A program made the translations under genes and the position numbers. A stretch of 32,000 nt of DNA, taken from contig CP064962.1 in assembly GCA_016699145.1 (NCBI GenBank), positions 510,001-542,000 of the forward strand. Direction: 5' to 3'. Below are positions 3,898 through 30,100 of the stretch, piece after piece. The DNA is from Candidatus Saccharimonadota bacterium. Lineage in GTDB: Bacteria; Patescibacteriota; Gracilibacteria; UBA1369; 2-02-FULL-48-14. The notes under the pieces were generated by a model. That model was not told the origin of the DNA and did no database searches. It saw nothing but the letters and a program-made list of their open reading frames with translations. Position 1 is the first letter of the stretch. Every line of letters begins with the position of its first letter.

Positions 3898-4371
3898 ATG
3901 TTTCAAAATCTGCTCTCTTTGTTCTTGGCCAGTACCTTAAGTTTTTCTTCCATTTCAATGGAAGAGGAAAACAGCTTCGACGCCAAAAGCCTGTTGAGTG
4001 TTTCCCCCCTACCCATACAAAAAGAAGACATGGAATCCCCCGGCACCCTTTATGCCGACAGCGCCTTGGCCATTGATCTGGAAACTCAAAGCATTTTGTA
4101 CGAAAAGAACAGCTTCAAGAGACGGCCCGTGGCCAGCCTGACCAAACTGATGACGGCTTACATCGTGCTCAAAGAAAACGACCCCAGCAGCATTGTGACC
4201 GTGAGCGCCCACGCTGCTGAAACTCAAGGTTCACGCATGGGCCTCAAAACGGGGGAACAAATCAGCGTGCGCAATTTGCTCTACGGCCTGCTCATTGAAT
4301 CCGGGAACGATGCAGCCGTAGCCTTGGCTGAATTCAATGCCGGGGACGAAAGCAGCTTCATTAAAAAATGA
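3898..4371 (+). CDS. Serine-type D-Ala-D-Ala carboxypeptidase (peptidase S11/PBP5-like), N-terminal fragment
   Basis: Contains a signal-peptide-like N-terminus, the SxxK active-site motif (ASLTKLMT) and the SxN motif (ESGNDAA). It ends ...ESSFIKK at a TGA that overlaps the next ORF's ATG. Confidence 0.8.
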   Translation: MFQNLLSLFLASTLSFSSISMEEENSFDAKSLLSVSPLPIQKEDMESPGTLYADSALAIDLETQSILYEKNSFKRRPVASLTKLMTAYIVLKENDPSSIVTVSAHAAETQGSRMGLKTGEQISVRNLLYGLLIESGNDAAVALAEFNAGDESSFIKK

Positions 4372-4772
4372 ATGAAGAAGCTGAGAATTTGGGCCTCGAA
4401 AACACTCATTATGCCAACACCAGTGGCCTGGACAGCAGCAGCGCCTACTCCACAGCGCACGATCTTTTGGTACTCAGTTCACATTTATTGGAAGATGAAG
4501 GCATCCGTGAAATCGTAAAAAACACCACTTACGAAGTGAAAAGTGAAGACGGACAGCAAGTGCACAAACTCACCAACACCAATGTCTTGCTGGGCCAATT
4601 GGGCATTTCGGGTCTCAAAACCGGAACCACCGCCATGGCCGGAGAATGCCTAGTGGCTTTGGCTAAAAACGAAGACGGCCATGAAATTTTAACCATAGTG
4701 CTGGGCAGTTCAAATCGTTTCATTGACACCAAAATTTTAGTCGACTGGATCTACCAGGCCTACTCTTGGTGA
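4368..4772 (+). CDS. Serine-type D-Ala-D-Ala carboxypeptidase, C-terminal fragment (frame differs by one base from the N-terminal fragment)
   Basis: Begins MNEEAENLGLENTHYANTSGLD, the conserved segment that directly follows the SxN region in S11 enzymes. It also contains the KTG motif (GLKTGTT). It is collinear with the upstream ORF with no residues missing. Confidence 0.8.
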   Translation: MNEEAENLGLENTHYANTSGLDSSSAYSTAHDLLVLSSHLLEDEGIREIVKNTTYEVKSEDGQQVHKLTNTNVLLGQLGISGLKTGTTAMAGECLVALAKNEDGHEILTIVLGSSNRFIDTKILVDWIYQAYSW

Positions 4773-8248: not shown

Positions 8249-9145
8249 CTATAACATAGCCTTGCAAACTTTTTCCACTTCTTCTTGAGTCCCAAGATAA
8301 ACGGGCGTCTTTTGAGTCAGTGAAGCAATCTCAAGATCAAGGATAGAAATTTTTCCATTGCTGCTGGCCCCCCCCGCTTGCTCCATTAAAAAAGCCATGG
8401 GGCCACATTCGTACATCAACCTGAGCTTGCCCTCGGGTGCACTGGGCATACCCGGATACATAAAAACGCCGGAGCCTTTTTTGAAAATATGATTGAGATC
8501 CGGCACCATCCCCCCAGAGTAACGCAGGGTGTATTGCTCCGTGATGAAGCAGTTCACCAGCTTCAAATAATCCTCTCGCTCCGCCGTGGCACGCAAATTT
8601 CCGGGCGCAAAATATTTTTTGCCCGCCGCCACTTTTACATCCTCACTCACTTGCACCCATCCCTCTGCAGTCAGTAAAAATTCTTGCACTCCCTTGCCAA
8701 TCGAAAGCATCACCGTCGTGCGAGGACCATACACAGCATAAAGCGCCGCGACCTGCTCACGTGGGGTGTGGCCCAGCACTTTCTTCAACGGATAAATCCC
8801 CACGATGGTGCCCACTGAAAAATTGACATCAAAGAGGCTGGAACCATCCAGCGGGTCGTGAAAAACACTGAAGATTCCCTCTGGATTCGCCTCTTGCATT
8901 CCATCCTGTTCTTCACTGCAATACGCTGCCACATAAGGATTCGTTTTGAGTGTGCGATTCAAAATTTCATCCGCCATCACATCCATGGCGATTTGCTCTT
9001 CCCCGTACGCATTTTGGCTGCCCGCTTTTTTGGTGCTGGCTTGAAGGATGGATTTAGAAATGTCTTCAATAGCACGGCCCAATTCGACCAGCAATTCCGC
9101 CAGTTCAGAAGTGGCGCCGCGATGAATGAGAAAGTCATAGTTCAT
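8249..9145 (-). CDS. fbp: Fructose-1,6-bisphosphatase, class I
   Basis: Motifs present: GEEQIAMDVMAD, FHDPLDGSS, YTLRYSGGMVPD and GKLRLMYECGPMAFLMEQAGG. I prefer the ATG at 9145 (MNYDFLIHRG...). A GTG at 9175 is an alternative start. Confidence 0.9.
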   Translation of the reverse strand: MNYDFLIHRGATSELAELLVELGRAIEDISKSILQASTKKAGSQNAYGEEQIAMDVMADEILNRTLKTNPYVAAYCSEEQDGMQEANPEGIFSVFHDPLDGSSLFDVNFSVGTIVGIYPLKKVLGHTPREQVAALYAVYGPRTTVMLSIGKGVQEFLLTAEGWVQVSEDVKVAAGKKYFAPGNLRATAEREDYLKLVNCFITEQYTLRYSGGMVPDLNHIFKKGSGVFMYPGMPSAPEGKLRLMYECGPMAFLMEQAGGASSNGKISILDLEIASLTQKTPVYLGTQEEVEKVCKAML

Positions 9146-9184
9146 ACATTTGTCAGAATAACGTCCAAACTTCACAAAGGCAAA

Positions 9185-10054
9185 CTAGCTAGGCCGATAC
9201 AAAGCCACATATTGATCCACAAAACGTTTATTAGATTCAAAGTCCGGCTGAGTCCGCAGTCTCCAATGCGAAGATGGTGCTTCTTCATTGTCGATGAGAC
9301 CCAAATGGGCTAAGCGTTCGTGGGCCGTACAAAGGGCATGCAAGCGCGCAGGATCATGAACTTTTTCAAGTGCCCAACGTTGAGTATGATGCAAAGAAGT
9401 CGCTCGTCGTGAACAGCCAGGATACGCACAAAGACCTCCGCTCCGCTCTCGAACCTGCCTCTGAATTCGTAAAGGGATATGCCGCGAAGAAGCCTTCGTT
9501 TTGACATCGAGAGGCACAATTTCTGAAACAACAGTCTCTTTTTCACCATCAAGGAACCTGTCCATCAGTTCTTGCCACGTAGAGTCTCCCTTCATTCGCT
9601 TCAATTTTTCAAGCGTCTCGGGGGAAAGTTCCATGCTAAGTTTTACAGTTTTGGTTTCCTCCCCGGGGAGACATTCTCTCCTGAAGTTTTGGACGTAAGT
9701 TTCCAAACTGTGTTTACTCATGGTTCTGGCTTTCTCCGCCCAAAAATCAGCCGTGTCTAAAGTGGCGATGGACACCACAGGCCGCACGCGCTGCAAACCT
9801 TTCTCAGCCACTACAGCCTGTAGAGCAGCTTTATTTTCTATCTTTTTTAAGACACGCAAAGCTTCCTCAACAGTAGCCCGACTCATCCCTGCCAACTTTG
9901 CTGCATACTCAAAAATACTGCCAAAACCCTTCTTGCGCCAAACTTGCCGACGTTCAATTTGAGGCAAAAGAAGCACACACTTGCGAGTCCACTCACGCGC
10001 ATTTCGCCCATATTCACTGAATTGCTGATGAAGAACTTGATCTTTTTTATCCAT
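9185..10054 (-). CDS. Free-standing HNH endonuclease (DUF222-like N-terminal region)
   Basis: C-terminal HNH/zinc-finger core: CAYPGCSRRATSLHHTQRWALEKVHDPARLHALCTAHERLAHLG. It lies between fba and fbp. I prefer the ATG at 10054 (MDKKDQV...). The ORF-track start at 10072 is a TTG. Confidence 0.8.
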   Translation of the reverse strand: MDKKDQVLHQQFSEYGRNAREWTRKCVLLLPQIERRQVWRKKGFGSIFEYAAKLAGMSRATVEEALRVLKKIENKAALQAVVAEKGLQRVRPVVSIATLDTADFWAEKARTMSKHSLETYVQNFRRECLPGEETKTVKLSMELSPETLEKLKRMKGDSTWQELMDRFLDGEKETVVSEIVPLDVKTKASSRHIPLRIQRQVRERSGGLCAYPGCSRRATSLHHTQRWALEKVHDPARLHALCTAHERLAHLGLIDNEEAPSSHWRLRTQPDFESNKRFVDQYVALYRPS

Positions 10055-10117
10055 GTTCAGAATATAGCACAAAGGGTGAGTATGCGCTCACCTTTCGGCT
10101 GGACTCCATTGAAAAAA

Positions 10118-10160
10118 GTTGCACAGTGCCCTGTGGGTACAAGGTGCCCTGTGGGTGCAA
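10118..10160. repeat. Intergenic tandem copies (2 full units plus a partial) of an 18-bp unit, core GTGCCCTGTGGGTRCA
   Basis: The sequence reads ...gttgcac AGTGCCCTGTGGGTACAA GGTGCCCTGTGGGTGCAA aataa. It is the same unit and orientation as the copies inside fba. Confidence 0.9.
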
Positions 10161-10247
10161 AATAAATCGCCCTGACCTAAGGCCGATGCTTTCGGCGTTC
10201 GCCGCGTAAAAAGCTTTCTAAAGATCATGTCGAACGAACAGCTTAAA

Positions 10248-10267
10248 CTGTCTCCCCGGGGAGACAG
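10248..10267 (-). terminator. Perfect 20-bp palindrome, candidate intrinsic terminator of fba
   Basis: CTGTCTCCCCGGGGAGACAG lies 32 nt downstream of the fba stop. On the minus strand it is followed by TTTAAGC, which is only weakly U-rich. Confidence 0.5.
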
Positions 10268-10299
10268 TCACAAATCAGGTGTTACAAAAAATTCCAGTT

Positions 10300-11412
10300 T
10301 CACGTAAAAAGCGCCTCAGCTTCCTCACTCCACTTCCCCTCCGCAGCAAGTCCATTCATGTGGGCACGGTGCACCAAAACTTTCTGTGCCTCCACAAAAG
10401 AAGCGCGATCTTTGGCCCACACCTCCAAAGCAGGCTGTTGTATGCCACGTCCATACGAAAAACTGAGCGGCCAAGGCAGGGTGCCCTGCGGGTGCAAGGT
10501 GCCCAGCTGGTGCATCAAGTTCAAATGCACTGTGGACTTCGCATCACTCTGCCCACCAGACAAAAACACCACTCCGGCAATGTTATCCGGCACATTTTCT
10601 TTCAAACATTTTACCGTCATTTCAGCCACTGTCTTTTCATCCGATTGCACGGCGGCATTCTTCCCCGCAAGCACCATGCTGACTTTCAAAATCGTGCCTT
10701 CCAGCGCCACGCCTTGTTCGGCGAGTTCGACAAAGAGAGTCTTTAAAACCTGAGCCGTCACTTCGTAACAACGTTCAATGCTGTGTGTTCCCTCCATCAT
10801 CATTTCCGGCTCCACCATCGGTACGATGTCCGCTTCTTGGCAAAGGGCTGCATAGCGAGCCAGGGCGTGAACATTGGCCTTCACACAAGCCGCGCTGGGT
10901 AAGAGGCCCTGTGGGTACAGCGTGCCCTGTGGGTGCAGAGTGCCCTGTGGGTGCAGAGTGCCCTGTGGGTACAAGGCATCAGAAATGTTAATGACGGCGC
11001 GCCACTTGGCAAAAGTCGCTCCGAGTCCACGGTATTCCACCAGACGTTCACGCAGTCCATCCAGCCCTTCTGTCACCTGCTCCCCGGGATGCAAGGCCAG
11101 ATCCTTCGCCCCTGTGTCCACTTTAATCCCAGGTTGAATGCCTTTTTCTTTTAAAACATCGACAAACTTGCGTCCGTCGCGCGTGCTTTGTCTCAAGGTT
11201 TCATCAAACAAAATCATCCCGCCCAAATATTGCTCAATGCCAGGGGCTGTGACCAAAAGTTCGCGATATTCACGACGCGTGTCTTCGTTGCAGTCGACCC
11301 CTAAAGCTTCAAAACGCTTTTTACAAGTGGAGTGACTTTCATCGATGGCTAAAACTCCTTTACCAGGAGCTACCATGGCTTTGGCCGTGGATTGAAGAAC
11401 AGAAAGATTCAT
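10300..11412 (-). CDS. fba: Fructose-bisphosphate aldolase, class I (Schiff-base type), carrying in-frame hexapeptide-repeat insertions
   Basis: Motifs present: GKGVLAIDES, FAKWRAV, LARYA, IVPMVEPE, the Schiff-base lysine context EGTILKVSMV, FLSGGQS and LSFSYGRG. I prefer the ATG at 11412 (MNLSVLQSTAKAMVAPGKG). The ORF extends to 11484. Confidence 0.9.
   Translation of the reverse strand: MNLSVLQSTAKAMVAPGKGVLAIDESHSTCKKRFEALGVDCNEDTRREYRELLVTAPGIEQYLGGMILFDETLRQSTRDGRKFVDVLKEKGIQPGIKVDTGAKDLALHPGEQVTEGLDGLRERLVEYRGLGATFAKWRAVINISDALYPQGTLHPQGTLHPQGTLYPQGLLPSAACVKANVHALARYAALCQEADIVPMVEPEMMMEGTHSIERCYEVTAQVLKTLFVELAEQGVALEGTILKVSMVLAGKNAAVQSDEKTVAEMTVKCLKENVPDNIAGVVFLSGGQSDAKSTVHLNLMHQLGTLHPQGTLPWPLSFSYGRGIQQPALEVWAKDRASFVEAQKVLVHRAHMNGLAAEGKWSEEAEALFT
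10480..10515. repeat. Two degenerate 18-bp units inside fba
   Basis: GGTGCCCTGCGGGTGCAA GGTGCCCAGCTGGTGCAT. On the minus strand this encodes ...MHQLGTLHPQGTLPW.... Confidence 0.75.
10903..10974. repeat. Four tandem 18-bp units inside fba (72 bp, in frame)
   Basis: GAGGCCCTGTGGGTACAG CGTGCCCTGTGGGTGCAG AGTGCCCTGTGGGTGCAG AGTGCCCTGTGGGTACAA. The minus-strand translation is LYPQGT LHPQGT LHPQGT LYPQGL. Confidence 0.95.
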
Positions 11413-11494
11413 AAGAAAATTTAGATTTGACGGCGCCACTATAGCATTCTTTTTAAAATAGGATAAACTGCTCATCACGCTCATTCCTTTTCAC

Positions 11495-12808
11495 GTGAAG
11501 AAAATCTTCCACCACCTTTTGATCAACAACCTCGTCGCGGGCATCAGCAACGCCTTCGTTTGGTTCGCCCTGACCTTTTGGATCTTCCTTGAAACGCGCT
11601 CCATTTTGGCGACCTCTCTGCTCGGTGGAACCTTTGCCATTGCCAACGCCCTCACGGCCTTTCCGTTTGGACACATCGTGGATCATCACAAAAAGAAAAG
11701 CGCCTTCGTGCTATCCAGTTTACTTTCGGTCAGTTGCTACCTCCTGGGCATCTTGCTCTACCACCTGACCCTCTCAGACGGAGTCGTCCAAACTCGCGAC
11801 CCCTTCTTATGGATTTTCGTGGTCGTGCTCATGGTGGGGGCCGTTTCTGGAAACCTGCGCAACATCAGCTTAAATCCGGTCGTCACCATGCTCTTCAAAG
11901 AGGAGGAACGCGGTCAAGCCAACGGACTCGTGGGCATGGTCAACGGTGTGACTTTCATGTTCACATCGGTACTCAGCGGGCTGGCCATCGGTTTTCTGGG
12001 CATGGAGATCAGTCTTTATTTTGCCCTCGCGGGAACGGTACTCACTCTGCTGGACCTCTTTCTAGTGCAAATCCCCGAAAAAGATCCTCAGACGCACGAG
12101 GATCACCCAGACCACCCTCATGAAAAGAAAGAAAAAAAGAACACTCTCGACCTCATCCGTAGCACACCTGGCTTCTACAGCCTCGTCTTTTTTGCCATCT
12201 TCAACAACGTACTCGGCGGCGTCTTCATGGCCCTCATGGATGCCTACGGACTTTCGCTCGTCTCAGTTCAAGCCTGGGGTTTCATTTGGGGAGGCCTCAG
12301 CATTGGTGTGATGATTGGAGGTGCCATCGTGACCAAATACGGCACTGGAAAAGATCCGCTCAAAAGACTCATCCTCATCAACCTATTCACCTGGATCACT
12401 TGCATTTTCTTCCCATTGAAGGCTTCGATCCTTTGGCTGATCGTAGGCGCAGCCACCTGGATGATCGCCTTCCCCATCATTGAAGCTTCCGAGCAAACCA
12501 TCATTCAAAAAGTCATCCCTTTAAAACATCAAGGACGCGTGACCGGCTTCATTCAAAGCATCGAATCCTCAACTTCGCCCCTCACCACGCTGATGATCGG
12601 ACCTCTCACTCAAATTTGGATCGTGCCCTTCATGACCACAGGCTTCGGTGCTCAAAGCATCGGCTCTTGGTTCGGAACCGGTCAAGACCGGGCCATGGCC
12701 CTGGTCTTTGTGATGGCCGGCATCATCGGCGTCATTGTCAGTCTCTTCACGCTCTTCTCCGGCAGTAGACGTCGCCTAAGCAAGCTTTATAATGCAAGCA
12801 ACACTTAA
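11495..12808 (+). CDS. MFS-type transporter
   Basis: 437 aa with about 12 predicted hydrophobic helices in a 6+6 arrangement. They are separated by a charged, His-rich central loop (PQTHEDHPDHPHEKKEKK). GTG start. Confidence 0.75.
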   Translation: MKKIFHHLLINNLVAGISNAFVWFALTFWIFLETRSILATSLLGGTFAIANALTAFPFGHIVDHHKKKSAFVLSSLLSVSCYLLGILLYHLTLSDGVVQTRDPFLWIFVVVLMVGAVSGNLRNISLNPVVTMLFKEEERGQANGLVGMVNGVTFMFTSVLSGLAIGFLGMEISLYFALAGTVLTLLDLFLVQIPEKDPQTHEDHPDHPHEKKEKKNTLDLIRSTPGFYSLVFFAIFNNVLGGVFMALMDAYGLSLVSVQAWGFIWGGLSIGVMIGGAIVTKYGTGKDPLKRLILINLFTWITCIFFPLKASILWLIVGAATWMIAFPIIEASEQTIIQKVIPLKHQGRVTGFIQSIESSTSPLTTLMIGPLTQIWIVPFMTTGFGAQSIGSWFGTGQDRAMALVFVMAGIIGVIVSLFTLFSGSRRRLSKLYNASNT

Positions 12809-13279: not shown

Positions 13280-15805
13280 ATGGATCTAGAACGTTTCACC
13301 ACCAAAGCCGCTGAGGCCCTGGATCAAACAGGCAAACTCGTACAAAAACGCGGGCATGCCTCCCTCACTCCTCTGCACCTTCTTTACACTCTGCTCATTC
13401 AGGAGAGCGGCATCGTACCTGGACTTTTCAAGAGCATGGACCTCGATGTGAATGCTCACTTAAAACGTCTCGAAGAAACCTTCAAAGCCTATCCAAAAAT
13501 CAGTGGCAATTATCGCTCACAAGTCTCCCCAGAGCTCGCAGAGGTTCTGGAACGAGCTGAAAAAGAAGCGCGCGACCTTCAAGATGAATACATCAGCACC
13601 GAACATCTTTTGCTCAGTCTGCTCAAAGACCGTAGCGTGACTCCCATTTTGCCCCTCAAACGAGAAATGGTTCTCGAAAAATTGAAAGCCTATCGAGGCA
13701 GCCAACACGTCACCGACCAAGACCCAGAAAACAAATATCAAGCCCTCGCAAAATACACCATCGATTTCACAAAGCTCGCTCGCGATGGCAAGATCGATCC
13801 CGTGATTGGACGCAACGAAGAGATTCGCCGCGTGATGCAAATTTTATCTCGACGCACCAAGAACAACCCCGTGCTCGTGGGCGAACCTGGAACGGGTAAA
13901 ACGGCCATCGTCGAAGGCCTGGCCAAAAAGATCATCGATGGAGATGTGCCCGAAAGTTTGAAGCGAAAACAATTATTAGGCCTAGACTTAGGTGCCTTGC
14001 TCGCAGGCACCAAATTCCGGGGTGAATTTGAAGAACGTCTCAAGGCCATCATTAAAGAAATTGAAAACTCTGACGGGCAAATCATCCTTTTCATCGACGA
14101 ACTTCACACCATCGTGGGTGCCGGCGCCGGTGAAGGTTCCACCGATGCGGGCAACTTACTGAAGCCAGCCCTCGCTCGTGGACAACTTCGCACCATCGGT
14201 GCAACGACTTTAAAAGAATATCGAAAGTACATTGAAAAAGACGCCGCGCTCGAGCGTCGCTTCCAGCCCGTGATGGTGGAAGAGCCATCACAAAAAGACG
14301 CGCTATCCATTCTGCGCGGCATCAAAGAAAAATACGAAGTACACCACGGCGTGAAGATCCGCGACAACGCCCTCGTTGCCGCAGTAACGCTGTCGAGTCG
14401 CTACATCACCGACCGCTTTTTGCCCGACAAAGCCATCGATCTCATGGATGAAGCCTGCTCTGTGATTCGCATTGAAAACGACAGCATGCCCACAGAAATC
14501 GATCAGCTGCAAAGACAAATTCGCCAACTTGAAATCGAACGTGAAGCACTTAAAAAAGAAGCCGATCCCGAATCAAAAAACCCAGATACCTCTGCGCAAA
14601 AACGCCTCAAAACTTTGGAAAAAGACCTCAGCGAATCTAAAGAGAACCTCAGTGTTTTAGAAACAAAATGGCGCAGCGAAAAAGAATTGATCGACCAACT
14701 CAAAGGCATCGATAAACAAATCGACGAGCTCAAAATGGAGGCCCAAACACTGGAGCGTCAAAGCGACCTCGCACGTGTCGCTGAAATCAAATACGGAAAG
14801 ATACCTGAACTCCAAAAACAAGCCGAAGAATCCAAGGAAAAACTTCGTGCTCGCCAAGGCGAAGGTCACCTGCTCCGCGACGAAGTGACGGAAGAAGACA
14901 TCGCTGCCGTAGTGTCGCGTTGGACCGGAATTCCAGTGAGCAAAATGCTCAGCACAGAAGCTGAAAAATTAACTCACATGGAAGAGGAACTCGCACATCG
15001 TGTGATCGGACAAAAAGAAGCGATCGGCGCCGTATCAAACGCTGTGCGCCGCAGCCGCGCCGGCATCCAAGACGAGAATCGCCCCATTGGTTCTTTCATT
15101 TTCCTCGGCCCTACCGGCGTGGGTAAAACCGAGCTCGCCAAAGCTTTGGCTGAAAGCCTTTTCGACGACGACAAACGCATCCTCAGACTCGACATGTCCG
15201 AATACATGGAGAAGCATTCCGTCGCTCGGCTGGTCGGCTCACCTCCAGGTTATGTAGGCTACGAAGAAGGCGGACAACTCACCGAAGCATTGCGTCGTCA
15301 CCCCTACTCCGTGCTGCTCTTCGATGAAATCGAAAAAGCACACCCAGATGTCTTCAACATCCTTTTACAAATGCTCGACGACGGCCGCCTCACCGACAGC
15401 AAAGGCCGCACCGTGGACTGTCGCAACACCGTCATCATTCTCACGTCAAACTTGAAACAGGACCAACTCAAGACAGCCTTCCGTCCAGAATTCTTAAACC
15501 GTATCGACAGTGTCATCGTCTTCCACAAACTCGACCCCGAGCACATCGGTGAGATTGTCAAACTTCAACTTAAAAAAGTGGCGGACCGTCTCGCTCGCCG
15601 TGGAATCACACTCAAACTTTCTAAGACAGCCCTCGCCCATTTTGCCGAAGCCGGCTATGACGAAGACTTCGGGGCTCGCCCGCTCAAACGCCTCATTCAA
15701 AACGAACTGCTCGACGAACTTTCCCTCCGCATTTTGGAAGGCAAAATCAAAGAAGGATCAAACGTGGAAGTGGAGTACAAAGATGGAAGCATCCAGCTCA
15801 GCTAG
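13280..15805 (+). CDS. clpB: ATP-dependent chaperone/disaggregase ClpB
   Basis: Clp N-domain, two AAA+ modules (Walker A GEPGTGKT and GPTGVGKT) and a long coiled-coil middle domain. I chose the start [14 protein letters not shown] at 13280. The track's start at 13256 lies inside CIRCE. Confidence 0.95.
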
Positions 15806-18800
15806 AGGTTACTCACACCAGGGCCTCCGTTATTGCGAGGAGCACCTTCTCCTCCAATGTTGGGGTTTTCAGCCTGTAATCTGCGAGCACTGTCAGTCAA
15901 ACTAACCGATTGAGCCTTGAGCTGAGCAGCCATTTCTTTAGCCGTGAGTTCTTTAGGTTTCATCTCGACTTTTCCAAGGATTTGGTCTCTCAAAATCACG
16001 CTCTTTTGAACACCACTGCCTATCACTTCACCGTTCGCAGCACTTTTAGCGCCGTGAGCAGGAGTTTTATATTCCACGGAAATCGCTCCATTGGGGGTAG
16101 TGGGATTGTAGGTTTCAGTCACTCGAGCTTTCACCCAAGTTCCTAGCTTCATGTAAGGCAGACGAATGCGGATTGTATCCCCTCGACTGAGTTCCGAGAC
16201 TTGAACTTCACGCACCGTCTCTTCCATCGTGGGACGAGAAGCAGGTCCGGCAGGAGGGGTTGGCTTTGAGTTAGGTGCCGTTGGAGGCACTGATGCCGGT
16301 GCAGCAGGTTCAGAAGCAGGCGCTGAAGATTCGGTGGGGTTTTGAGCTTTAGGTGCTTGAGTGTTGAGCTTGGGCCCAGAAGCAGATGTGGAAATTTTAG
16401 TGGATGACTGGTCTGGAAGTACTGGAGTATTGAGCTTGGGCCCAGAAGCAGATGTGGAAATTTTAGTGGACGACTGGTCTGGAAGTACTGGAGTATTGAG
16501 CTTGGGCCCAGAAGCAGATGTGGAAATTTTAGTGGACGACTGGTCTGGAAGTACTGGAGTATTGAGCTTGGGCCCAGAAGCAGGGTTGAACGTATTTGGA
16601 GCTACACCAGTTGAAACTTTATTGAAGGCTTGGGCTCCAGCTGGTTTAGGGCTGAATTTTGGTATAGATGTAGGAGCAACCGGAGGCATACCGCCTGGAG
16701 CTTGCGGAATGGCAGGAACCGCTTGCACATGAGCAATCGCGCGAAGTCCCAGTACCACTCCTGTGGTGTGCATGAGGTCACGCCAGAAGTTGGGATCACG
16801 CATGGCTTCCGCTTCATTAGCAGAAAGCAATCCTGCTGCGTCACCCAAAGAAAGTTGTCCAGCACTGAGAGCGTGCATGGCAAGTAGCTCCGAGCCCACT
16901 TCTCCAGCAAGCACTCCGGCATAAGCTGCGCCTCCAGCATTTCTTCCAGCGACATTTAGACGTCCCAAGAAACGACTGGCAGGTGCCGTGGCTCGTTGAA
17001 GCAGAGAAAACCGAGTGAGTGTTTGCCCATTATTAAGGGCTTGAGCTCCAGCGGTTTGTCCCCGAGTGAATTGTTGAACCTTCCCAAGCAAATACAAAGT
17101 GCTTGCCATGGTTCCCACTTGATAAAGAGCATCCCGTGCCCCCTCGGCAGTCGTGGGATTGAGGGTCGTTCCATGCAACAAATGCTGGGCTTCTACAAAA
17201 AAGGCAGCATGACCAATGTTACGTCCAGCAAGTGCCAAGCGTCCACCCGTATAAGCATTCGCAGCAGACAACTGTGTCATCAGACCTGTAGCTCCCGCTC
17301 TTCCTACCGCTCCTGTCAGGTGAGCTCCGGCGGCGGTGCTATTCAAGGCAGCACCAGCCTGTCCTCCCAGTTGAGCAAAAGGGAGCCCCGTGCCAAAAGC
17401 ACGCGTTCCAAGTCCAGCGATGCGAGCGCCACCCGCAGCTGCAGCCGCTCCGGAAGCAAGCCCCGCAGTAGCGGCTTGTATGACAGCAATTTCAGCCAGA
17501 GTTTTAGCGACAGAAGCAGCCGTATCGGTGTTTTCTTCTTTCAAGTCAAATGCTCCCCACCCTTCAGTTTGAGCCAACGCACCCATGGCCGCAATTTGAC
17601 GAGTGCTGAAGCCATCTTTCACCATTTGCTCAATGTCCATGGATCCAGCAGTCGTCTCTCCATAAGCCCCAAAAGGCAAGATCAAAGACGAAAGAGGGCT
17701 ACTGAAATACTTATCATAAATCGGCTTGGCCCGTTCCGCTTGAAGCTGAATTCTCGCACGGTTCTCGAGCACTAGACGAACAGTGGTATCTACATAATCC
17801 ACTTTATCTTTGTAGAAGCCAGTATTATCCGGTTTTTGCATTCTTTGGAAATCGGCATCCTCGAGGCCTTTTCCCTTTAAAGCTACATAAAGTCCCGCAC
17901 GAATTTGTCCTCCTTCTTCTTCATCCAACTCACCAAAACGCGCCTTTATTTGTTCCTTCGTGGCCTCTGAACCCGAAAGTTTACCATCAAGGGCGCTCGT
18001 GCACAGCTCACGAAGTTCATCGTAATGCTTGGTGTTTTTGGCAGCCATGATTTTAGCCAAGAACAATTGCTCAGCCCCACCCAATTTGTGATCTTTTTCA
18101 AAAGGAGGACTCAAAAGAATGTCGTCAGAAGACTCGATGAGCCCCTTTCTATTTCCATAAGCTCGCGCTCCAACTCCCTGCATTTTTTCAGAAATAAAAG
18201 AGGAGCCGCCCAGAAAGGCCGCTTGATCCCCCCTAAAAGCATTCCAAATGTTGTTGGCGCCCAAATTTTCGTCTCCATTTTGATACTCTTCAAACAGACG
18301 GAACTCCTCTTCATGGGCAATAAAATACTTTTTGAAATCCAATTTTTGACCCGGTTTCAACTCAAAAACAGAACCCAAAGGATCGGAGACCTGATCGGAC
18401 CCAGCAAGATTCTCAGGGAGCCGAATTTCAGTCAAAGCTCCATTTTTCAGCTGCTCATAATAATGCTTGATGGGATTTTCCACAGTCTTCCCATCTAAAA
18501 TATCTTGGGGGTACTGATAAGCAATGGCCAAGCGAAGCGCCTCGAGCACATGCCAAGAAGCCACATACACTTCTTCATCGGTGTCGTTCCAATTGCTGAA
18601 CATCTCTTGCCATTCTTTACGACTGGTACCCTCTTGAATGTGTTGATCCAAATCTTCTTGATCATCATCATCAAAATTTGCGGTCATCACCGAAAAGGCC
18701 GTACCCACCATGTCAGAAGCCAAAGACCGTCGAGTGAAAAATTCCAAAGAACGTTTGTTGGATTCAAACCAAGGCTGAAGTTCAGAGGCAAGTTCCTGAG

Positions 18801-20205
18801 GATCAATGGCACTCAACTGTTCAAATAAATAAGGCAAAACCTTAGAGTCACCGGTTTCATGCTGCCCCTGAAGGAGAGCACTCTGCAGGCGCCAAAAAGC
18901 TTGAGTGGAGGCGTTCGCCAAAGGATCTTTTTCCATCTCTTTCATCTGTCGAAGCACTCCATTCTTGGTTTTTGTGGACAATTCTTGAAGCATTTGCATG
19001 GCCTTAGCAGGATCTCGTTGTCCAAGTTTTTCAAGAATAGCTCCCAACACCAGTTCTTGATCCTCAGCATTGAGTTGAGACAGTCCTTCAAAAAAAGGAT
19101 CAATACCAAAGGTTTCGTAATCCTTCAAGAGTTCCTGAGTGACAACGCCGAATTCAACACCTTCATCAAACTGACGTGAACTAGGAATCAAATTGCCATT
19201 TTCTGTACGAGAGTAAACATAGGACTCTTTAGTACCCCTCAATGGCAGGGGTTGAACGCCTGGCTCGGGATTCGATTCTGACTCATTACCTGGCTGAGAA
19301 TCAGGTTGAGTTCCGGAATCAGGATTCGCACCATCAGGGTTTTCACCTGGAGCAACAGGAGGCACAGGAGCTACTGGAGGCGCTTCCTTTTCAAAATCAA
19401 TAATCACCAAATTTCCCTGACATCCATTTTTCATTTGAGCATAAATACGCCCCTCTTCCCAACGGAAAGCTACATTTTTAAGTTCAAGCTTGCTGCGCAT
19501 TTCTTCGGGAATGGAGAGTAAATCTCCTCCCACCGTCACACGGAAGTTTTTGACCGCACGGCCCTTGAGTTCACGAGCAAGTCCCTCACCGGCATTCAAA
19601 TCATCCACAGTGGAAGCTTCCATTTCAGCCGCAATTTTTTGACGAACCTCCTTGCTTTTTAGAGTTTCTCCATCCAAATGCATAGACCCCATCAGCGCCT
19701 CAGCAGGGGAATCTTCCCCAGAATTTACCAGCTGAGAAGCCATCATGAGCTCAACCATTTCAGATTTTTGAACGGGCATTTTACTGGGATCTTTGCCAAG
19801 CAAATCAATCAAAGTGGCAGTCACTTCCGTTCGCCAAATCTGACGGGCATAAACCAAGGCACGTTCCTTTTTTTTGTTTCCTTTGTTTTCAATCAAAACA
19901 CTGGCCAAAGCTCGACGCTGGTCGGCATTTGGGAACAGTTTCTGACTGAGTTCTGAGTTTCCTCCCCACGCTTGCCACGCATTCGAAAGATCAGCCCACT
20001 CTTTAGGGGTCAACTTTCCCAGAAAAGCAGGGTCTTTCAATTGCTCTTTCACGGACTTCAAAGCCTTGTCCACAATGCCAAAAGTACGCTCCATTTCTTT
20101 TTTCTCAATCAACCCTTTTTGAGCCCGCTTTTCATAACGATCCAGCATTTTCCCAACAGGTTCACTACTGGTCTCTTTTAAGGATTTTAAGACTTCAGAA
20201 GCCAT
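15802..20205 (-). CDS. Orphan giant protein (1467 aa), no recognisable family
   Basis: This long uninterrupted ORF is the only plausible frame here. There is no N-terminal signal peptide. Protein order is: helical/acidic N-terminal part; Pro/acidic linker ([18 protein letters not shown]...); Gly/Ala-rich hydrophobic region, roughly residues 905-1190 (DNA about 16640-17500); P/S/T-rich 22-aa repeats; a small C-terminal beta-like domain. Confidence 0.8.
16364..16584. repeat. 66-bp tandem repeat, 3 full units plus a 23-bp partial, inside the giant ORF
   Basis: The unit is TTGAGCTTGGGCCCAGAAGCAGATGTGGAAATTTTAGTGGAYGACTGGTCTGGAAGTACTGGAGTA. Copies differ at a single synonymous T/C position. The unit encodes [22 protein letters not shown] x3. 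Confidence 0.95.
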
Positions 20206-25524: not shown

Positions 25525-25536
25525 AAATTGATCTGT

Positions 25537-25560
25537 AAATTCCTCCCCGGGGAGGAATTT
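25537..25560 (+). terminator. Intrinsic terminator candidate after gap (24-bp perfect palindrome)
   Basis: AAATTCCTCCCCGGGGAGGAATTT starts 12 nt after the gap stop. It has a GC-rich stem core and its 3' arm ends in a T-run (GAGGAATTTTAA). Confidence 0.6.
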
Positions 25561-25585
25561 TAACCTGCAAGAAATTTTGGGTCAT

Positions 25586-27047: not shown

Positions 27048-27122
27048 CCCTAGAAAAGGTAAAGAAAAAACACTAGAAATATAATCCAGAAAAGATAGTA
27101 TAAAGGAAAGAATACTCCTGCC

Positions 27123-30100
27123 ATGTCACGCCTCCCCTTCTTTAATAAAGTCCTCAAAGCCCTGTTCCTGCTGAGTATAGCGGTCTTTTTTCAATGGCAA
27201 ATGACGCAGAACGCTTCTGCGGCCACTCGAACCTGGGATGGCGGAGGAAGCACCAACAACTGGAGCGACTGTGTGAACTGGTCCAATGACACGTGTCCCA
27301 CCACAGCGGATGTGGCCACTTTCGACGCGACCTCTGTAAAAAATGCCACCCTCGACAATGGTTTCACGACCGGCGTCACCACCTTCAACATGAATACGGG
27401 TTACACCGGAATCATCACTCAAGGGCGCTCTTTCGTAGTGAGTGGAAACACCACCCTCGCTTCTGGAACTTTCAATGGAAACTCTGACGCCCTCACTTTC
27501 ACAGGAAGTTTTGGCCAGAGCGGAGGGGCCTTCAACGGCGGCGCTCAAAACGTGCTACACACGGGTGCTTTCACCATAAGTGGAGGTGCGTACACAGCCA
27601 GTTCTAGCACAACCACTTTTGCAGCTGCTTTCACCCACACCATAGGAGGAACCTTTAGTCACAATAACGGTACCGTCGTCTTCACAGGAGCCGCGGCAAC
27701 TATCAATGTCGCCACTACAGAAACCTTTCAAAACCTACAAGTCAATAAGAACAATGCTGTAAACTTAACGATCTCTTCCGGGGATACCTTAGTAGTTAAC
27801 GACACGACCACTCTCACCAATGGAGGTTTGGGTGGAACCGGAACCTTGAATGTGGCCAAATCCATTTCTGTGAATTCAGGATGGGATGGTTCCACAACTG
27901 GAACCATCAGCATCACTGGAACAGATGTTCAATCTTTATCCTTAAACGGAGACCAAGCTCGCCTTGCCGGAACCATCACTCTCAACAACCCGAACTTCAC
28001 CATCAATGGAACAGGATCAGGGACTTTGAACTTCAATATTCTCAATCTTCAAGCAGGTATCCTGGATGCCACAGGTTTCAGCCTAAGTGTGGCTAGCACC
28101 TTCTCTCAAAGCGGCGGAACTTTCACCGGAGGCTCAGGCACTGTGACACATACCGATGACTTCACCCTCAGCGCCGGCACCTACACCGCCACTTCTGGCA
28201 CCACCGATTTCGCAGCCGGCTTCACTCATACCGCCGGAGGAACGTTCAGCCACAATGAAGGCACCGTGGTTTTCTCGGGAGGAGCAGCAACCGTCAATGT
28301 GGCCACGAGTGAAACTTTTAAGAACTTGCAAATCAATAAAAACAACGCCACCAACTTAACCATTTCAGCCGGAGACACTTTGATTGTGGGTGCCACGACC
28401 ACTCTCACCAATGGAGGTTTGGGTGGAACCGGAACCTTGAACGTGGCCAAATCCATCTCTGTCGATTCAGGGTGGGATGGCTCAACCAATGGAACCATCA
28501 ACATCACTGGAACAGACGTTCAATCTTTATCCCTGAATGGAGACCAAGCTCGTCTCGCGGGAACCATCACCCTCAACAACCCGAACTTCACCATCAATGG
28601 AACAGGATCGGGTACTTTAAACTTCAATATTCTCAATCTCCAAGCAGGTACCGTGAATGCCACGGGTTTCAACCTCACTGTGGCCAGCACCTTCTCTCAA
28701 TCCGGGGGAGTCTTTACTGGAGGAAGCGGCACCATCACTCATACCAATAACTTCACTCTTTCCGGTGGGACTTACACTGCCAGCTCCGGAACCACCAACT
28801 TCGCAGGGGATTTTACTCGTACTGCAGGAGGAACTTTCACTCATAATAATGGAAGCATCGTCACAAATGGCGGCGCAAGCGCTTGGGATGTGACGGGTAC
28901 AGAAACCCTTCACAATCTTACGATCAATACCACAGGAACCAGTATCCTCACAGTGGTCAGCGGAGACACTTTAGTAATCGAGGGCACTTTGCTCCTACAA
29001 AATGGTCAATTCAGCGCGGGAACTTTAAGCGTGCAAGGAGACATGGTTGAAGAAGGCACTTGGGATGGAGGCACTTTAGGAGGCGAAATAAAAGTGGAAG
29101 GTACAGGTACACAAACGGTAACTTTGAATGCAGGAAGTATAGAACCCGCAAACACCTTCACCATCAACAACAGTGACGCCACGGTCAACGCACCGGGCAG
29201 TGGCAGCGCCTACTTCTGGCTCTTCAACCTTTCCGCAGGGACCTTCAATGGAAACGGCGCAACAATCACTATAGACAACACCTTCACTCAAAGCGGCGGG
29301 ACTTTCAATTCGAGCACAGCGAGCCTCAGTTTTTCAGTCAGTATGACTCAAAGTGGAGGAGCCTTTAATGGCAGCTCAGGAACCGTCACCTATGCCGCAG
29401 GTTTCACTCTCTCGGCAGGCACCTATACGGCCAGTTCCGGAACCACCTACTTTCAAGGAAATTTCACTCACACCGCAGGAGGAACCTTCAGCCACAATAA
29501 CGGCACCGTAGAATTCAACACCGCGGGCGACAGCACTTACAACGTAGCTAGCTCAGAGACCTTCAACCACGTGACTCTCAATAAAGCAGGTTCCAATGCG
29601 ACCATCTCTTCAGGAGACACCTTCATCGTATTGGGAAACCTAACTTTAAGCGATGGACGTTTCAATACTGGAACTTTGGAGATCTATGGCGACGTAAGCG
29701 TCGGAGCTGCTTACGATGCAGCCAGTTCTCCCATGATTTTTAGAGGATCCGCAACGCAAATCTTCACCCTGGGAATAGCAAACAGCATCAATGGGGACCT
29801 CACCATCAACAAAAATGGCGGGTCTGTGCAACAAAGTGGCGCTTTGATTTTAGATGCAAATTCTCAAGACCTCCTCATCACATTAGGCACTTACAACATC
29901 AATGGATCCGACTTAAGCGTGAATGGCACGTCGGGAACAATGGTCGTACAAAACGGTGGAATTTTCCAACTCCAAGGAGGGGAATCCATCACATTGAACG
30001 GAGGAAATCCAAGTTTACAAACAGGCAGCCTTGTGAAATACAACGGCGCGGCTGGCCCTTACACTCTTAAGGATTTCACCTACAAATCCTTAGAAATTGC

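Follow-up and report, generated by a model that had tools for sequence, protein, structure and literature searches.

An 18-bp unit recurs at three loci lying within 860 bp in a Peregrinibacteria genome, two of them inside the coding sequence of a class I fructose-bisphosphate aldolase and the third in the spacer that separates this gene from its neighbour. The identity of the units establishes, at the level of sequence, that copying took place between the loci; the mechanism given below is our proposal. The reading that we favour, with somewhat better than even confidence, is that of a lineage-private minisatellite that was born locally from codons native to the aldolase and did not arrive as an incoming element. 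The unit probably descends from the native HQLGT codons of the aldolase, and the repeat is most likely a neutral oddity private to its lineage.

Eight matches to one unit at three loci

A pattern search of the window, the whole 32-kb stretch of DNA analysed here, gave exactly eight matches to GTGCCCTGTGGGTRCA, all of them on the + strand, in agreement with the eight equally oriented copies within about 860 bp that the first-pass annotation had listed. Five matches carry no mismatch (10126, 10144, 10922, 10940 and 10958) and three are imperfect (10481, with one mismatch; 10499, with three; 10904, with two). Shuffled sequence is expected to yield 0.46 matches, against the eight observed, and none of 100 shuffles reached that number; likewise, the 9-mer CCCTGTGGG occurs six times against 0.22 expected. 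Tandem Repeats Finder delimited period-18 arrays at 10126-10160, 10476-10514 and 10896-10973, the copy numbers across the three loci being 4.4, 2.2 and 1.9.

Six of the eight matches fall inside the aldolase coding sequence and two are intergenic. All three loci are described here on the minus strand, on which the aldolase is encoded. Site 1 (10903..10974) consists of four tandem units, 72 bp in all, which encode residues 147-170, LYPQGTLHPQGTLHPQGTLYPQGL. Site 2 (10480..10497) is one inserted unit, TTG CAC CCG CAG GGC ACC. The intergenic array (10120..10160), placed between the aldolase stop codon and the start of the gene annotated as an HNH endonuclease, contains two full units, as previously counted, to which a 5-nt partial third unit at 10120-10124 has to be added. 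The two degenerate copies formerly assigned to 10480-10515 are of different nature: the inserted unit at 10480-10497 stands as a copy, and 10499-10514 corresponds to the native, conserved HQLGT codons.

The translations given earlier, LYPQGT-LHPQGT-LHPQGT-LYPQGL and HQLGTLHPQGTL, are correct, so that in the aldolase frame the peptide repeat LYPQGT/LHPQGT is found four times and HPQGTL once. Since the unit measures 18 bp, any number of copies preserves the reading frame. The 46-aa minus-strand open reading frame that covers the intergenic copies reads CTHRAP/CTHRAL, as had been claimed, and both intergenic copies are identical to the core at 16 of 16 positions; hence the similarity resides in the DNA and is not a product of peptide selection.

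The aldolase and its two inserts

The gene hosting two of the three loci (10300..11412, minus strand) encodes 370 amino acids from an ATG at 11412. Its assignment to the class I fructose-bisphosphate aldolases is based on profile matches well above cut-off to PF00274 (E 5.3e-118, 394 bits against a cut-off of 22.2, matched in two stretches) and to the NCBIfam model FrucBisAld_I (NF033379; E 1.9e-139, 464 bits against a cut-off of 250), on a TIM-barrel fold and on the presence of the invariant residues. The AF2 model has a mean pLDDT of 90.9 and superimposes on 3mmt with a TM of 0.94 in Foldseek. Comparison was made with 52 orthologues, 65-89% identical to the Peregrinibacteria enzyme and 339-346 aa in length; the search for orthologues brought up no relative above 89% identity.

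Both sites inside the gene are true in-frame insertions with respect to these orthologues, as the first-pass annotation had supposed by comparison with class I aldolases such as vertebrate ALDOA. The insertion at site 1, estimated before at 22-24 residues, comprises exactly 24, which is the length of four units, and no equivalent block is present in any of the 52 aligned orthologues. In 40 of 53 sequences the corresponding segment has 14 residues, against 38 in this aldolase, and the phmmer alignment to 3mmt is interrupted at aldolase residues 145-169. The insert occupies the loop between the strand formed by residues 144-147 and the helix formed by residues 174-193; with pLDDT values under 50 at residues 152-167, it is predicted to be disordered. 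At site 2, where five or six additional residues had been suspected, the single unit adds exactly six, which can be placed as TLHPQG or as LHPQGT because GTL is present on both flanks. This second insert is located in the loop that follows helix 290-306 and leads to strand 316-319. The six-residue gap is seen against 3mmt and against two further sequences (P0001 and P0004), and in the codon alignment made with L024, L002, L004, L005 and L025 the closest orthologues are devoid of the block.

Length variation at these positions is not exclusive to the present enzyme, as insertions of 1-9 aa, unrelated to these, are found at both of them in other orthologues; both inserts thus fall in length-variable loops. 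All the invariant residues of the family are kept, and the remainder of the enzyme is conserved and modelled with confidence. The aldolase with its inserts would probably still work, in line with the earlier opinion that its motifs are intact.

Descent from native codons and local spread

Adjacent to the inserted unit of site 2, and in register with it, are the native codons ATG CAC CAG CTG GGC ACC (M-H-Q-L-G-T; 10498..10515, minus strand), of which the stretch HQLG is conserved in most orthologues. When the inserts are removed, no other stretch on the coding strand of a 4.7-kb region matches the unit as well as these codons do (14 of 18 positions ungapped, 17 of 21 with flanks), which places them within the top 0.2% of windows. 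The units can be ordered in a graded series that leads from the native codons to the site-2 unit (three differences), from there to the intergenic unit i1 (one difference) and then to i2, which is the same as the first site-1 unit u1, and to u2-u4. Unit i2 (TTGTACCCACAGGGCACT) and u1 are identical at 18 of 18 positions, i1 differs from the site-2 unit by a single nucleotide, and the CCG of site 2 forms a halfway step from the native codon CAG to the consensus CCA. Each locus has in addition variants of its own, CCG being found at site 2 only and TTG...ACC in i1 only.

These private variants could not have been copied from the other loci, a fact that makes it very hard to believe that the arrays arose as an artefact in the assembly or polishing of a long-read MAG. 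Residual long-read errors are indeed suggested by a carboxypeptidase gene of the window that is interrupted at an A6 run, probably by a homopolymer frameshift; however, errors of that type are 1-nt indels and not insertions of 18-72 bp, and the arrays are all in frame and positioned precisely in length-tolerant loops.

We propose the following model for the origin of the repeat. The native 18 bp CAC CAG CTG GGC ACC CTG (H-Q-L-G-T-L), in the loop preceding the PW motif, would have undergone a tandem duplication, and the new copy, free of constraint, would have drifted to CAC CCG CAG GGC ACC (HPQGT). A short patch of it would then have been copied ectopically, in the same orientation, into the spacer some 320 bp downstream and into the second aldolase loop some 390 bp upstream, most likely through a short-range template switch during replication or repair (copy-choice). 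Replication slippage would have subsequently expanded the copies to 2.3 and 4 units. The insertions would have survived because they were sited in non-coding DNA or in loops tolerant to changes in length, where the added peptide merely forms a disordered loop. The graded series is consistent with the proposed order, and none of the relatives examined shows intermediate states; that site 2 came first is suggested by parsimony and by one intermediate base.

The junctions of site 1 and of the spacer (site 3) are unremarkable in their resemblance to the unit, ranking at 14.6% of windows, and their microhomology amounts to only about 6 nt (TACCCA) at site 1 and to only 4 nt in the spacer. Insertion guided by homology at all three sites was considered and discarded, resemblance to the unit being found at site 2 only. 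Since insertion at site 1 and in the spacer took place without need of homology, descent is the better explanation for the likeness seen at site 2. The assembly of the spacer as a patchwork of nearby pieces was also discarded, as the coverage of the spacer by shared k-mers was not above that of control tiles, 7-12% of which were as high.

The spacer directs attention to the neighbouring gene (9185..10054, minus strand), named HNH endonuclease by NCBI (QQR55462.1, 289 aa, by exact look-up). Inserted between the aldolase and the fructose-1,6-bisphosphatase genes, it shows a presence/absence pattern: L002, L003, L004 and L024 lack it, L005-L007 have it at 66% identity, and in L025 it is reduced to a 3′ remnant of about 45 bp. 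If the product of this selfish gene nicked or cut the DNA near the site of its own insertion, repeated repair could have pasted short nearby templates into the breaks, leaving as a by-product a cluster of one patch within 1 kb of the gene. None of the three loci is more than about 900 bp from the start of the gene, and one is 70-105 bp upstream of it; the gene is of the mobile type, and the fate of the junction between the aldolase and bisphosphatase genes, where it is absent, present or left as a 45-bp remnant, amounts to repeated insertion and deletion; and insertion at sites 1 and 3 with no need of homology fits templated insertion of the end-joining type rather than recombination. Nevertheless, we regard this explanation as unlikely. 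The genomes L005-L007 carry the gene and have no unit in spacer or aldolase, the corresponding spacer of L005 (73 bp) included; the nuclease is putative, its identity coming from the NCBI name and from a CxxC...HH...H motif as read here, and the protein has no significant match in Pfam or NCBIfam that would support an HNH domain; and its association with the repeat is one of proximity. A link between gene and repeat is thus speculative. It would be more far-fetched to see in the unit an actively propagating micro-element, pasted by a dedicated activity for which the adjacent gene would be the candidate through nick- or break-primed templated synthesis, and we give little credit to that idea. 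If propagation were driven by the HNH gene, a homing-type nuclease gene would be remodelling loops in neighbouring housekeeping proteins of a reduced CPR genome, in a manner not described before.

Local descent from the aldolase codons has to be weighed also against a dispersed mobile or selfish repeat family, of the REP or Rickettsia palindromic element kind, inserted three times, once beside a chance look-alike of itself. The unit is present in coding and in non-coding DNA, in one orientation and with a weak inverted-repeat core. On the other hand, the other 31 kb of the window contain no further copy of GTGCCCTGTGGGTRCA, even with three mismatches allowed, and a survey of the window's genes brought up neither a transposase nor a RAYT or reverse transcriptase. 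Three tandem or site-2 junction patterns, run against the species genomes of GTDB, the JGI metagenomes and IMG/VR, gave two matches only (L001 and L027), both native sequence of unrelated genes. The tandem-pair pattern had a single match in 185,579 GTDB species genomes, in L001, and none in JGI metagenomes or IMG/VR. In this unrelated MAG the identical 16-nt core is arranged as an 18-bp tandem pair within an Anaerolineae gene, a finding that by itself would favour a wider family; yet a relative 93% identical (L026) has one copy in place of two, which shows that the pair is a duplication of the gene's own native codons. It was excluded as a family member and constitutes an independent parallel of the duplication of loop codons. 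The L027 match, to the site-2 junction, was rejected as well, being a single, non-repeated native sequence in an unrelated ORF. Rough chance estimates for these exact matches over 16-24 nt, allowing for G+C, are about 0.001-0.01 and 0.03-0.3 for L001 and L027; each is somewhat unlikely by chance, yet native to an unrelated gene.

Other searches agreed with the earlier remark that the repeat was unrecognised. A single unit has 16 isolated matches in viral contigs of IMG/VR, which look like chance, and BLAST of the arrays against plasmids and phages gave nothing relevant. Peptide repeats read in all six frames, when compared with 5.8 billion protein clusters, had two weak low-complexity matches only, Rfam 15 had no covariance-model match at E ≤ 1 across 9000-11600, and a full-text search of the literature for unit and peptide retrieved no related repeat. 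Moreover, a dispersed family would require the in-register likeness to the native site-2 codons to be a coincidence. We consider such a family improbable, slightly more so than break repair by the HNH product. From the former proposal of a DNA- or RNA-level element that had spread locally, the DNA-level similarity and the local spread are retained; the incoming element is not, as derivation from the aldolase's own site-2 codons is the simplest account of the unit.

A selected function in cis, with the units acting as binding sites for protein or RNA or as a structured motif that regulates the aldolase-HNH-FBPase string, appears to us a poor candidate. The core is 16/16 in five copies, third codon positions included, but recent copying predicts high identity equally well. 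The + strand arrays can form nested helices containing G-U pairs (z about -2), and the last intergenic unit has a small hairpin followed by a T-run; still, the strand that folds better is the one antisense to the three genes, Rfam gave no match, and the orthologous loci manage without units. The quasi-palindrome pointed out before gives RNA folding only marginally better than that of shuffles (z-scores of -0.4 to -2.1) and DNA folding not different from them; hairpins of single units reach -2 to -2.7 kcal/mol, no different from shuffles. The GGG tracts, one every 18 nt, would leave loops of 15 nt, which would be too long for a stable quadruplex, and with such weak folding z-scores an RNA or DNA structure or a G-quadruplex was dismissed. 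The spacer does contain a perfect 20-bp palindrome, CTGTCTCCCCGGGGAGACAG (10249..10268, minus strand), 31 nt past the aldolase stop codon, which looks like a terminator hairpin and lies outside the 18-bp family. Its core TCCCCGGGGA recurs at 9660, 24092 and 25544.

Comparison with known repeat systems

The arrays share several features with intragenic tandem repeats (minisatellites or VNTRs with a period multiple of three): copies are head to tail, the frame is kept, the peptide is of low complexity and disordered, and slippage plausibly generates and resizes the array. Ordinary intragenic repeats occupy one locus, whereas here three loci a few hundred bp apart are involved, one of them non-coding. 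Surface proteins are their more common hosts, and the protein concerned here is a glycolytic enzyme with a housekeeping role. The window has another tandem repeat that keeps the frame (66 bp, 3.4 copies), within a large ORF.

Rickettsia palindromic elements are reportedly selfish repeats inserted in frame in protein-coding genes. They measure about 100-150 bp, are clearly palindromic and have many copies genome-wide. In common with them, the present repeat is one of DNA, is both intergenic and in frame in a conserved gene, and contributes peptides to surface loops sparing the fold; it differs in its 18-bp unit, which folds as shuffled sequence does and not into a stable palindrome of 100-150 bp, in the location, within the 32-kb window, of all its copies in 860 bp and in its apparent derivation from the host gene. 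Like the present unit, REP/BIME elements are short, G+C-rich, imperfect inverted repeats clustered in tandem in one orientation. They are extragenic, are associated with a RAYT (Y1 transposase) and reach hundreds of copies; here only two of eight matches are intergenic and six are coding, the hairpin is weak, no RAYT is nearby among the ORFs of the window and the 32 kb hold no other copies. A diversity-generating retroelement consists of a reverse transcriptase close to a template/variable pair of about 100 bp differing at adenines; this type was discarded, as the window has no reverse transcriptase, the repeats are of 18 bp and their differences are not specific to adenine.

The spread between loci can be compared with templated insertion. 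RecA-independent copy-choice between nearby sequences occurs in E. coli, and synthesis-dependent microhomology-mediated end joining in eukaryotes; we know of no documented bacterial case in which a patch of 18-36 bp was pasted at two places some hundreds of bp from its source. The practical consequences would be modest: the enzyme seems unimpaired, the repeat belongs to one lineage, and nothing points to a regulatory or structural role. If our reading is right, the locus captures several of the stages by which a loop may grow, namely duplication of six codons, divergence, short-range pasting and expansion by slippage, and short templated copy-and-paste, known from eukaryotic break repair, could shape genes in a small CPR genome. 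As in templated insertion or template switching, a short patch appears to have been taken from a template no more than about 1 kb away, with its orientation kept and with little or no homology at the junctions, and the presence of the copied patch beside the original corresponds to a dispersed micro-duplication, seen here through its sequence footprint.

Repeat units and insertions in the aldolase

A search of the 32-kb window for GTGCCCTGTGGGTRCA with up to 3 mismatches gave 8 matches, every one on the + strand and within 10126-10973, as described in the first-pass annotation (eight copies in one orientation within about 860 bp). Shuffling of the window predicted 0.46 matches, and 8 or more were reached in 0/100 shuffles; the inner 9-mer CCCTGTGGG occurs 6 times in the window versus 0.22 expected. 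With Tandem Repeats Finder, the copies fall into three arrays of period 18 (10126-10160, 10476-10514 and 10896-10973). An artefact is extremely improbable. The first array is located between the genes of a class I fructose-bisphosphate aldolase (10300-11412, − strand; PF00274, E 5.3e-118, with the match split into two stretches) and of a protein named HNH endonuclease by NCBI (289 aa; 9185-10054, − strand), beyond which lies the fructose-1,6-bisphosphatase gene (8249-9145, − strand); exact protein look-ups for the window genes gave QQR55461-QQR55465, encoded on a Candidatus Peregrinibacteria MAG contig of 1.34 Mb. The other two arrays are inside the aldolase gene, at site 2 (10480-10515) and site 1 (10903-10974). 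Identity of the unit at the DNA level spans coding and non-coding sites. The earlier translations, including the 46-aa ORF across the intergenic copies, were correct. A genome-wide dispersed element is quite unlikely, the same search having found zero additional copies in the remaining 31 kb.

The aldolase has 370 aa, whereas the nearest ones in a search of 5.8 billion protein clusters, 89% identical over aligned columns, have 339-346. In a 53-sequence alignment, the AVINI-to-LPSAAC segment contains 38 residues versus 14 in 40 sequences. The surplus is exactly LYPQGTLHPQGTLHPQGTLYPQGL, four units or 72 bp, where an insertion of about 22-24 aa between AVINISD and LPSAAC had been proposed. The segment preceding PWP contains 23 residues versus 17 or 18 in 46 sequences, a surplus of one unit that matches the 5-6 aa suggested before the PW motif. 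Alignment by phmmer to the Bartonella aldolase structure 3mmt breaks at residues 145-169 and leaves a six-residue gap at site 2. The AlphaFold2 model (mean pLDDT 90.9; TM 0.94 when superposed on 3mmt) positions both inserts in loops, as anticipated: insert 1 between strand 144-147 and helix 174-193, with pLDDT below 50 for residues 152-167, and insert 2 between helix 290-306 and strand 316-319. At these two positions, other orthologues in the alignment have unrelated insertions that are 1-9 residues long. Both loci within the gene are genuine insertions, and the loops that received them tolerate changes in length. Since every column that is invariant in the family is kept and the model is confident except for the low-pLDDT insert, the aldolase looks intact, with two floppy loops added.

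Origin of the unit

Codon alignment with five orthologous genes showed that site 2 reads ATG CAC CAG CTG GGC ACC / TTG CAC CCG CAG GGC ACC / CTG CCT TGG, in which conserved M-H-Q-L-G comes from the first block and the extra unit makes up the second. Therefore, one of the eight copies, a degenerate one at site 2, is native conserved sequence. The 4.7-kb neighbourhood was rebuilt without the three inserts and compared with the unit. The best coding-strand match is provided by the native site-2 codons (14/18 ungapped and 17/21 with flanks), which rank in the top 0.2% of windows; the site-1 and spacer junctions are ordinary in this respect (14.6%). Because homology was not required for insertion at two of the sites, descent is the better explanation for the in-register similarity at site 2, and the native sequence is probably the progenitor of the unit. 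The locally spread DNA-level element first proposed is thus retained as to DNA-level identity and revised as to origin, the site-2 match favouring native aldolase codons.

We propose that the native HQLGTL codons were duplicated in tandem at site 2 and that the unconstrained copy then drifted. At the codon where the native sequence has CAG and all other copies have CCA, the site-2 unit has the intermediate CCG. A graded series leads from the native sequence through the site-2 unit, with 3 differences, to intergenic unit 1, with 1 difference, then to intergenic unit 2 and the first site-1 unit, which agree at 18/18 positions, and finally to the remaining site-1 units. We infer its polarity, native codons first, from sequence comparison. 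Copying would be accomplished by short-range template switching and expansion by slippage, and the repeat would be neutral. The whole account, local birth at site 2, short-range copying, slippage and neutrality, is favoured with modest confidence.

A functional cis-element is very unlikely, since folding as RNA or single-stranded DNA gave no support for a structured element. Folded as RNA, the + strand arrays gave z about −2 and their coding strand z between −0.7 and −1.8, whereas the hairpin of a unit in single-stranded DNA reaches only −2 to −2.7 kcal/mol, not above shuffles; the quasi-palindromic character attributed to the unit therefore has little expression in folding. Of the two strands, the one that folds better is antisense to all local genes. 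GGG tracts 15 nt apart are poor quadruplex candidates, and the last intergenic unit has a small hairpin plus a T-run, a consensus match only.

The aldolase-phosphatase junction

The aldolase and phosphatase genes are separated by 9-10 bp, with no HNH gene, in four relatives (L002, L003, L004 and L024), and by a 66%-identical HNH gene in three others (L005-L007), where the spacer upstream of it has 73 bp and lacks the 18-bp unit. In L025 the aldolase stop codon is followed directly by a remnant of the HNH 3′ end, about 45 bp long, indicating a past deletion. The window's spacer has 227 bp, and the surplus of about 155 bp contains a terminator-like palindrome and two units. Presence, absence and 3′ remnant among relatives show the HNH gene to be a selfish presence/absence insertion at a repeatedly remodelled junction. 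That the HNH product caused the local copying of the unit is speculation, and a break-repair variant linked to it is unlikely, as relatives have the HNH gene without the repeat.

A conserved hairpin followed by CTTTGTGCTAT precedes the HNH start by about 20 nt, its sequence being GGTGAGCGCATACTCACC in the window (10075-10092, − strand) and GGTGAGCATGCACTCACC in L005 (1832-1849); it probably travels with the gene. The palindromic core TCCCCGGGGA occurs 4 times (9660, 10253, 24092 and 25544) versus 0.74 expected; at 10249-10268 and 25536-25561 it forms terminator-like hairpins directly past gene ends, and one occurrence within the HNH coding sequence has 17/18 nt in common with the intergenic one.

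Wider searches and other features of the window

The tandem-pair pattern was found at one locus among 185,579 GTDB species genomes, and at none in JGI metagenomes or IMG/VR. At this locus (L001), a membrane protein gene of GT39 type from Anaerolineae reads PTGHDVPTGHDV. It has two copies where a 93%-identical relative (L026) has one, ATA CCC AAG GGG CAC GAT GTC, so that its own loop codons were duplicated independently. The duplicated 18-bp native loop segment (4409-4444) has the period of the window's unit in a different reading frame. The 16-nt cores are identical, with a rough chance estimate of 0.001-0.01 allowing for G+C richness, which we regard as a coincidence not fully explained. The site-2-junction scan gave one match (L027), native and non-repeated in an unrelated ORF, and viral contigs gave isolated matches to the single unit. 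Unit-derived peptide repeats in six reading frames had no real match among 5.8 billion protein clusters, and no related repeat appeared in plasmids, phages, Rfam or the literature. A related family is absent from the collections searched, and the repeat is, as far as can be seen, private to this locus.

Elsewhere in the window, a 66-bp tandem repeat (16359-16583, − strand; 3.4 copies, 98% identity) encodes, in frame, a 22-aa repeat of a 1467-aa ORF (15802-20205) without Pfam match. Another ORF without Pfam match (27099-32000, + strand) has at least 1633 aa, runs past the window end, contains internal repeats of 591 and 669 bp about 70% identical, and probably encodes a giant surface protein. 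The D-Ala-D-Ala carboxypeptidase gene (3898-4772, + strand) is broken at an A6 run (4362-4371; ATTAAAAAATGAATG) into two ORFs of 157 and 134 aa, where relatives have 290 aa. One extra A would restore the frame, and the break reflects either a pseudogene or a long-read homopolymer error. A 33-nt inverted repeat (25581-25613/25769-25801), 85% complementary and with arms 155 nt apart, is located in the spacer that precedes the hrcA-grpE genes.

The repeat is of moderate-to-low interest unless active spread is revealed. Intragenic minisatellites are a known kind, from which the window's repeat, on this account, differs in having also seeded two nearby loci.
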